IMG/VR virus record: IMGVR_UViG_2839610755_000009
From: a virus
Taxonomy: Duplodnaviria; Heunggongvirae; Uroviricota; Caudoviricetes
Direction: 5' to 3' (one strand)
DNA length: 55,878 nucleotides
Shown here: positions 8,666 through 9,641 of the stretch, in pieces
How positions within the stretch are numbered: position 1 is the first letter of the stretch
Layout: every line of letters begins with the position of its first letter
Notes under the pieces: model-generated
The model's input: only the letters and a program-made list of their open reading frames with translations
Databases searched by the model: none
Told to the model about the DNA's origin: nothing
Program-made: the position numbers and the translations under genes

Positions 8666-9318
8666 TGAGTAATAAATATTGCCAGGCGCTGGTGGAGCTG
8701 CGGAACAAACCAGCCCATGAACTGAAGGAAGTGGGCGATCAGTGGCGCACGCCGGACAACATTTTCTGGGGAATTAACACCCTGTTTGGCCCGTTTGTTC
8801 TGGATCTGTTCACTGACGGTGATAACGCCAAATGTGCCGCTTATTACACTGCGGAAGACAACGCGCTGGCGCATGACTGGTCAGAACGTCTTGCGGAGCT
8901 TAAAGGTGCTGCCTTTGGTAATCCCCCATACAGCCGCGCCAGTCAGCATGAGGGGCAATACATCACCGGCATGCGTTACATCATGAAGCATGCCAGTGCC
9001 ATGCGTGATAAAGGCGGGCGCTATGTTTTCCTGATCAAAGCTGCCACCAGCGAAGTGTGGTGGCCGGAAGATGCAGATCATATTGCTTTTATTCGCGGGC
9101 GTATTGGTTTTGAACTGCCTGCCTGGTTTATCCCGAAGGATGAGAAGCAGGTGCCGACAGGCGCTTTCTTCGCTGGTGCTATTGCTGTTTTCGACAAGAC
9201 CTGGAAGGGACCGGCAATCAGCTACATCGGGCGCTATGAACTTGAGGCATGTGGTGAGGCCTTTCTGGCGCAGGTTCGCCAGCAGGCAGAAAAACTGGTC
9301 AGGGAGATGGCGGCATGA
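8665..9318 (+). CDS. phage DNA N6-adenine methyltransferase (Dam-like)
   Basis: ORF with NPPY catalytic motif (GNPPYSR); start taken at ATG 8665 overlapping upstream stop. Confidence 0.8.
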   Translation: MSNKYCQALVELRNKPAHELKEVGDQWRTPDNIFWGINTLFGPFVLDLFTDGDNAKCAAYYTAEDNALAHDWSERLAELKGAAFGNPPYSRASQHEGQYITGMRYIMKHASAMRDKGGRYVFLIKAATSEVWWPEDADHIAFIRGRIGFELPAWFIPKDEKQVPTGAFFAGAIAVFDKTWKGPAISYIGRYELEACGEAFLAQVRQQAEKLVREMAA

Positions 9319-9641
9319 CGACGTTAACTCAATGCCAGCAGCAGGTGCTGGATATGCTGATTTCTTATCAGAAAGAACGTGGCTTCCCGCCAACCAATCA
9401 GGAGGTGGCAACCATGCTGGGATACCGTTCAGTGAATGCAGCGGTGGAGCATCTTCGCGCACTGGAGAAAAAAGGCGTCATCACGATAAAGCGTGGCGTG
9501 GCCCGGGGGATAACGCTTCATATCGCGGTGAAGGACGACGACAGCGAGGCGGTCGGGATTATCCGCGCACTGCTTGCCGGTGAGGAAAACGCAAGGCTGC
9601 GTGCAACCCACTGGTTACATGAGAGGGACCTGAAAGTATGA
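9315..9641 (+). CDS. LexA N-terminal DNA-binding domain protein (no peptidase domain)
   Basis: 108 aa; LTQCQQQVLDMLISYQKERGFPPTNQEVATMLGYRSVNAAVEHLRALEKKGVI matches LexA wHTH domain. Confidence 0.7.
   Translation: MTTLTQCQQQVLDMLISYQKERGFPPTNQEVATMLGYRSVNAAVEHLRALEKKGVITIKRGVARGITLHIAVKDDDSEAVGIIRALLAGEENARLRATHWLHERDLKV

Follow-up and report, generated by a model that had tools for sequence, protein, structure and literature searches.

The closest characterized analogue of the protein described here is gp6 of the Bacillus tectivirus GIL01, a truncated homologue of LexA that has a palindromic site of its own and switches on the late promoter P3 (PMC6182141). Although gp6 is 44% identical to its host LexA over the corresponding region, the site it recognizes is a different one, which lies across the −35 element of the late promoter, and gp6 works as an activator (PMC6182141). 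Heads that lack a C-terminal domain are also released when S24 repressors are cleaved, as with phage CI and LexA 1–84, and these heads can still occupy operators. The N-terminal fragment of a Staphylococcus aureus phage CI, for example, keeps DNA binding until it is degraded, with ClpX (PMC10584840). Such cleaved fragments are transient and are cleared by proteases. Two kinds of laboratory construct are also informative. LexA residues 1–87 fused to heterologous dimerization domains repress sulA-type promoters, and both these fusions and noncleavable (Ind−) LexA mutants keep SOS promoters repressed regardless of RecA activation.

Here, we describe LexN (the name used here), a 108-amino acid protein encoded in a prophage within the window, that is, the whole 55.9-kb stretch of DNA that was analyzed. 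LexN is of a known kind, the phage-encoded LexA-domain regulators, but it represents an uncharacterized and very widespread family with a distinctive tail. It has the winged helix-turn-helix fold of Escherichia coli LexA (1LEA, 3JSO), including the Arg-Gly-Ile wing, while lacking the S24/dimerization domain, the Ser119/Lys156 pair, and self-cleavage; a helix-loop-helix tail stands in their place. LexA is autoregulated from an SOS promoter, whereas LexN is phage-encoded and would be expressed from an early lytic operon. The LexA 1–87 fusions have the architecture that we propose for LexN. They are laboratory constructs, whereas LexN is natural, has Val in place of Glu44, and would dimerize through a module of its own. 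In contrast to the transient fragments of cleaved repressors, LexN has a gene dedicated to it and carries a conserved tail of its own. As for gp6, it comes from a phage of a Gram-positive host, consists by its authors' model of the winged helix-turn-helix alone, and activates from a site distinct from the LexA box. The conserved helical tail is a LexN feature, and the LexN recognition helix is closer to that of its host LexA. LexN and gp6 are probably independent captures.

The LexA-type head, the missing protease and the tail

The LexN gene has the extent and ATG start given in the earlier note, as confirmed by the open reading frame (ORF) list and the sequence. Its features are as follows.

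9315–9641, plus strand: LexN coding sequence, 108 aa, stop included (ORF list, PHROG 362 match, dN/dS)
9315–9521, plus strand: residues 1–69, LexA-type winged helix-turn-helix, three helices and a beta-hairpin wing (Pfam, alignment, AlphaFold2, Foldseek)
9429–9470, plus strand: recognition helix, residues 39–52, SVNAAVEHLRALEK (LexA: SPNAAEEHLKALAR; alignment to 1lea/1jhh)
9522–9536, plus strand: acidic flexible linker, residues 70–74 (low pLDDT)
9537–9626, plus strand: family-specific helix-loop-helix tail, residues 75–104, replacing the S24 domain (AlphaFold2, conservation, pN/pS)
9576–9581, plus strand: Ala88-Gly89 codons (GCC GGT), aligned with the LexA scissile bond (HMMER alignment)
9315–9318, plus strand: ATGA overlap of the Dam methyltransferase stop and the LexN start (ORFs 8632–9318 and 9315–9641)
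9638–9641, plus strand: ATGA overlap of the LexN stop and the RusA start (ORFs 9315–9641 and 9638–10027)

The assignment of the N-terminal part to the LexA winged helix-turn-helix, first made in the earlier note, is borne out by profile searches. Pfam LexA_DNA_bind (PF01726) matches residues 1–65 over its full 65 positions (E = 2.9e-19), with a score of 69 bits against a cutoff of 23.7, well clear of anything expected by chance. The best solved relatives in a PDB sequence search are E. coli LexA entries (E ~1e-15), and direct alignment to E. coli LexA gives 35 of 69 identical residues (51%) over residues 1–69. An AlphaFold2 monomer model built on 13 family sequences (mean pLDDT 78, pTM 0.52), which says nothing on oligomeric state, places helices at residues 6–22, 28–35, and 40–52, and strands at 56–59 and 65–68. 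Foldseek superposes residues 1–69 on DNA-bound LexA (3JSO) with an rmsd of 1.4 Å at ~50% identity.

The LexA helix III residues that contact DNA are Ser39, Asn41, Ala42, Glu44, and Glu45 (PMC3091678). The earlier note had proposed that the protein could occupy SOS boxes. Of these residues LexN keeps Ser39, Asn41, Ala42, and Glu45 (four of five), and Glu44 is Val (NAAVEHL, compared with NAAEEHL in LexA). This allele matches LexA at 8 of 12 recognition-helix positions, including Asn41, Ala42, Ala43, Glu45, and His46. Among 17 family members, Ser39, Asn41, and the wing residues Arg64-Gly65-Ile66 do not vary. No family member has Glu at position 44, and some lineages carry Gly, Asp, Leu, or Ile instead of Glu45. 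Judged by its recognition helix, this allele looks competent for CTGT-type half-sites, and binding to SOS boxes or SOS-like operators as a RecA-proof repressor is plausible. Because Glu45 is replaced in some lineages, the family as a whole appears not to be locked to LexA specificity or held to an invariant host SOS box.

The absence of an S24 peptidase, also claimed in the earlier note, holds: there is no Peptidase_S24 match, the protein ends at residue 108, and no catalytic Ser/Lys domain is present in cis. Against the NCBIfam lexA equivalog (TIGR00498), LexN covers only model positions 1–91 of 203 and scores 69.3 bits, below the 110.95 cutoff. With no S24 domain, no conserved scissile bond, and a score under the cutoff, LexN falls outside the LexA repressor proper. 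Since the winged helix-turn-helix is present and the S24 protease absent, LexN should be insensitive to RecA-stimulated self-cleavage, and the previous description of the protein as noncleavable is a sound inference from this architecture.

The same description had the Ala-Gly cleavage site missing, which is not literally right. Ala88-Gly89 is present, and HMMER aligns it with LexA Ala84-Gly85, pairing LexN LLAGE with LexA VAAGE. The dipeptide lies at a predicted helix end. Close homologues have AN or VG at this position, and distant ones have TR, SG, DD, AC, AE, AD, or ER. We rejected Ala88-Gly89 as a functional cleavage site on the grounds that it is unconserved in the family; it is probably vestigial or coincidental.

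The S24 domain is replaced by a tail that has no Pfam model and no specific PDB match in Pfam and Foldseek/PDB searches. It follows a linker with pLDDT below 50 at residues 71–75 and of variable length within the family, and it is modeled as two helices (residues 75–87 and 93–103; block pLDDT 86–87). Its motif runs from a hydrophobic helix through a short polar loop to A-x-x-x-A-x-x-[WFY]-L. The motif recurs in 38 to 47% identical proteins of 106 to 165 aa from six genera (Cronobacter, Kosakonia, Enterobacter, Cedecea, Klebsiella, and Salmonella), and the tail is conserved across these together with Escherichia, Citrobacter, and Hafnia, so that homologues with it span the Enterobacterales. The family unit thus appears to be a LexA head joined to a helix-loop-helix tail, not a bare truncated LexA. 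The tail is a putative dimerization or partner-binding module, likely a substitute for the LexA dimerization domain. The tail, which the earlier note missed, decides whether LexN can act as a repressor. The suggestion that the protein could be a dominant modulator of the host SOS response lacks specific support, because LexA dimerizes through a domain absent from LexN.

Gene neighborhood, distribution and selection

The gene lies in a prophage, as the earlier note held, integrated at tRNA-Thr beside proA (thrW prophage). The window begins in proA and tRNA-Thr, with the prophage after them. An integrase is followed by a minus-strand cI-like repressor (HTH_3 and S24), then cro, a CII-like gene, DUF4222, an O-like initiator, and a PerC-like gene, and then Dam, LexN, RusA, KilA-N, a DUF968/HNH gene, and the Q antiterminator. 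The late part comprises lysis genes, an HK97-type head, and Mu/SfV-type contractile tail genes. The order PerC-(Dam)-LexN-RusA-KilA-N-DUF968-Q is kept down to a 65% identical Citrobacter homologue, whose locus also has the LexN/RusA codon overlap. LexN is directly upstream of RusA in the window, in 80 IMG/VR loci, and in Citrobacter, Salmonella, SfV, Ayreon, and cdtI.

By its start and stop overlaps, LexN is translationally coupled to both Dam and RusA. A promoter scan near the gene found no sigma-70–like promoter beside LexN. We infer that LexN is a delayed-early gene read from PR; it would then be off in the lysogen and expressed once the prophage is induced or a cell infected. Late transcription in the prophage is expected to depend on the Q antiterminator.

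The prophage carries two identical 1310-bp IS3-family elements (IS629-like; 108-aa and 296-aa ORFs) at 16387–17696 and 32565–33874. Strain 7784 has a prophage that is nearly identical apart from lacking both. A small deletion close to the HNH endonuclease gene accompanies the first element. Because the second sits within the baseplate V gene, virion assembly from this copy of the prophage is probably defective. A tail-fiber segment next to a pinE-type recombinase (36245–38147) is inverted relative to strain 7784, as would fit an invertible switch of host range. Beyond the prophage, at about 42100–53200, lies a second element. Going by how strain 7784 is annotated, this is a P4-like satellite; it has integrase, ogr/Delta, Psu, Icd-like, and primase-helicase genes plus an “ABC-three component system” defense cassette.

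LexN matches PHROG 362 (“transcriptional repressor”) with E = 2.1e-58, residues 1–108 aligning with profile positions 1–106, tail included. PHROG 362 and WP_000210141.1 (SfV orf42, the mEp460 gene product, Stx-phage pham 237) are the LexN family itself, known by annotation labels. The identical protein WP_000210141.1 is annotated as “LexA family transcriptional regulator,” and the LexA-family label, which the earlier note did not know of, is already widespread. The gene is found in 2233 of 5426 complete E. coli genomes (41%), usually intact, and in 50 phage records, including SfV, SfII, SfIV, mEp460, cdtI, and Stx2a and Stx2c phages. A profile search of genome contigs with a narrower family alignment found only five loci. 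Pham 237 has been listed among the lysis-lysogeny phams of Stx phages (PMC8136144); such a pham is listed in two genomics papers on Stx phages, neither of which includes functional work on it. No experimental or functional study of the family turned up in literature searches by accession, gene name, and phrase. A role in a known defense system was considered and rejected, the only PADLOC match being marginal and of the winged helix-turn-helix type.

Some homologues are mislabeled “SOS-response repressor and protease LexA,” “RecA-mediated autopeptidases,” or “Rrf2 family regulator.” The protease and autopeptidase annotations are wrong for LexN, whichever reading of its operator holds. The neighboring Dam methyltransferase is mislabeled “phosphoadenosine phosphosulfate reductase” in RefSeq phage records.

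Selection was analyzed with 146 full-length lexN copies from the fetched loci, which reduce to 81 distinct alleles and 36 proteins. Median pairwise dN/dS over the 81 alleles is 0.10, the allele pairs being nonindependent. Pooled pN/pS is 0.08 for the winged helix-turn-helix and 0.28 for both the linker and the tail. Head and tail are therefore both under purifying selection, a result whose direction is clear, and the strongest constraint within LexN falls on the DNA-binding head.

SOS boxes in the window and in related phages

The consensus CTGT-N8-ACAG has one exact match in the window, and it lies inside the cI-like repressor gene:

5294–5986, minus strand: cI-like repressor (HTH_3 and Peptidase_S24) with an SOS box in its linker codons (domain searches)
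5758–5777, no strand assigned: candidate operator, the perfect SOS box TACTGTTTTTATATACAGTA, inside cI (pattern search, position weight matrix)

A LexA position weight matrix, built from E. coli operators mostly corroborated by Table 4 of PMC3009722, scores this box at 25.9 bits; the next best site in the window scores 13.6, and the maximum of 30 shuffles is 21.3. The reverse complement of the box is identical to the umuD and sbmC operators (PMC3009722). It encodes N-T-V-Y-K-N-S-N, in the linker between the HTH and S24 domains of cI. In the 92% identical cI of mEp460, Stx2a_1447, 1720a-02, and phiSTEC1575, the 20-mer is kept save for one spacer base, and the Citrobacter cI also has it, apart from one flanking and one spacer base. 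To either side of the box, the codons diverge in all these alleles. This cI-embedded umuD-type operator is the most testable lead.

Candidate roles for the box within cI are a roadblock, an internal promoter, or antisense control. A promoter tool found no promoter overlapping it. The one candidate from a relaxed scan, GTAATA-17-AATAAT on the minus strand, is weak; its spacer contains the box, and the translation signals downstream of it are poor.

Other LexN-bearing phages have a strong box elsewhere. SfV, Ayreon, cdtI, and Stx2c_PV98-693 are complete LexN-bearing phages with a different cI, and each has a strong SOS box at codons 3 to 9 of a late DNA methyltransferase gene (orf48 in SfV). This gene comes shortly after Q, where the late region begins. 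The box, TACTGTAAAAATAAACAGTG, lies at 34170 in SfV (L178), 41489 in Ayreon (L180), 44083 in cdtI (L181), and 13919 in locus L017. In the window, the methyltransferase gene (14008–14322) is 5′-truncated, and only a degenerate remnant of the box is found, at 13885–13904. Three loci have a strong box immediately beyond the RusA gene, 764 bp downstream of the LexN start. Searches of the conserved module found no recurrent weaker SOS-like site there, and no convincing recurrent alternative palindrome in the module or downstream of Q.

In cdtI, two strong SOS boxes also stand in tandem upstream of a dinI-like gene (26720 and 26748). A similar tandem pair occurs in Stx2c_PV98-693 (L179) at 49747 and 49775, in a record without gene annotation.

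LexN is present in all 13 complete-phage records that have the box-bearing cI allele, and in 56 of the 64 adequately covered IMG/VR loci with that cI. Neither feature needs the other, because LexN is lacking in the remaining 8 of 64 loci, in three of which Dam and RusA are present. Conversely, only 32 of 73 LexN loci with at least 4.6 kb of upstream sequence have this cI. For 22 of the 53 LexN loci with coverage on both sides, no SOS box reaching 18 bits lies within 10 kb in either direction; all these frequencies come from LexN-bearing and box-cI loci and do not establish enrichment. Obligate co-occurrence of LexN and a phage SOS box was rejected on these counts (22 of 53 and 8 of 64). The association is real, not obligate, and is confounded by linkage, shared ancestry, and clonality. 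Because ~40% of the related loci have no nearby phage-borne box, the counts do not establish an obligate phage target. Host SOS boxes could be the main target, and a non-SOS operator fits the data equally well.

Candidate regulatory roles of LexN

Our leading reading, held tentatively and at somewhat less than even confidence, is that LexN is a RecA-insensitive, LexA-like regulator of the lytic program, probably dimerized by its tail, which binds SOS-like operators after host LexA has been cleaved. In this scheme LexN would be made only after PR derepression, that is, once DNA damage has destroyed host LexA, and RecA-stimulated autocleavage could not inactivate it. The tail would supply dimerization, allowing two LexN heads to occupy a palindrome. 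The proposal that they bind CTGT-type (SOS-like) operators comes from a recognition helix that is nearly that of enterobacterial LexA. LexN might then reimpose RecA-proof repression on SOS-box promoters, both in the host regulon and at phage-borne boxes such as the one inside cI.

A more specific form of this reading is possible but doubtful: LexN could be a viral factor for shutting off the SOS response, a dimeric mimic of LexA, proof against RecA, with which induced prophages re-silence SOS boxes after the loss of host LexA. If so, host SOS toxins, mutagenic polymerases, and rival LexA-controlled elements would be switched off, and phage-embedded operators would be acted on as well. More generally, if LexN binds SOS boxes, a large share of E. 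coli and Shigella prophages, Shiga-toxin phages among them, would rewire the DNA-damage response during induction, with a bearing on toxin release, mutagenesis under antibiotics, and competition between co-resident prophages. LexN would also be a natural counterpart of the engineered LexA-head fusions and a Gram-negative parallel to the interplay of LexA and gp6 in GIL01.

Alternatively, LexN might have drifted from the specificity of LexA and be a phage-specific regulator in the manner of gp6, activating or repressing phage promoters at one or more phage operators of its own and leaving the host SOS regulon untouched; LexN would then be one more small phage regulator. We regard this as unlikely. 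It has a precedent in the activation of P3 by gp6 at a non-LexA site, and it would fit the family-wide substitution of Glu44, the variability of Glu45 in several lineages, the many LexN loci that have no SOS box nearby, and the abundance of diverse stand-alone LexA-domain proteins in phages generally. However, the conserved module and the region downstream of Q yielded no recurrent alternative palindrome, and the overlapping codons and tight packing around LexN leave no local intergenic operator. The 8 of 12 recognition-helix residues that this allele shares with LexA also argue against it.

It is improbable that LexN works mainly through protein contacts, whether with RNA polymerase, LexA, RecA, or RusA, or as an LLAGEE pseudo-substrate for S24 proteases (cI, LexA, UmuD). 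A conserved tail with no detectable homologue would suit such a role, as would the alignment of residues 79–90, Ala-Gly included, with the LexA cleavage-site region. That dipeptide is unconserved, however, and the segment is predicted to be helical, whereas the LexA region is strand-loop. The invariable adjacency to RusA, with its codon overlap, could hint at a partnership, but gene adjacency in nin-type regions is positional and implies no function. Moreover, the strongest constraint falls on the DNA-binding head (pN/pS 0.08).

That LexN is a decaying, functionless remnant of a captured lexA, as its resemblance to a truncated LexA and the frameshifted or fused copies in some records might suggest, is effectively excluded by the low dN/dS across the alleles, full-length conservation, tail included, over at least nine genera, and its usually intact presence in 41% of complete E. 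coli genomes.

Among the stand-alone LexA-domain proteins of phages, many representatives of 140 to 350 aa (P0129, P0130, P0148, P0149, P0152–P0154, and others) match the LexA head in two separate stretches. Such proteins have two LexA DNA-binding domains in tandem on a single polypeptide, and a monomer could in this way read a full palindrome.
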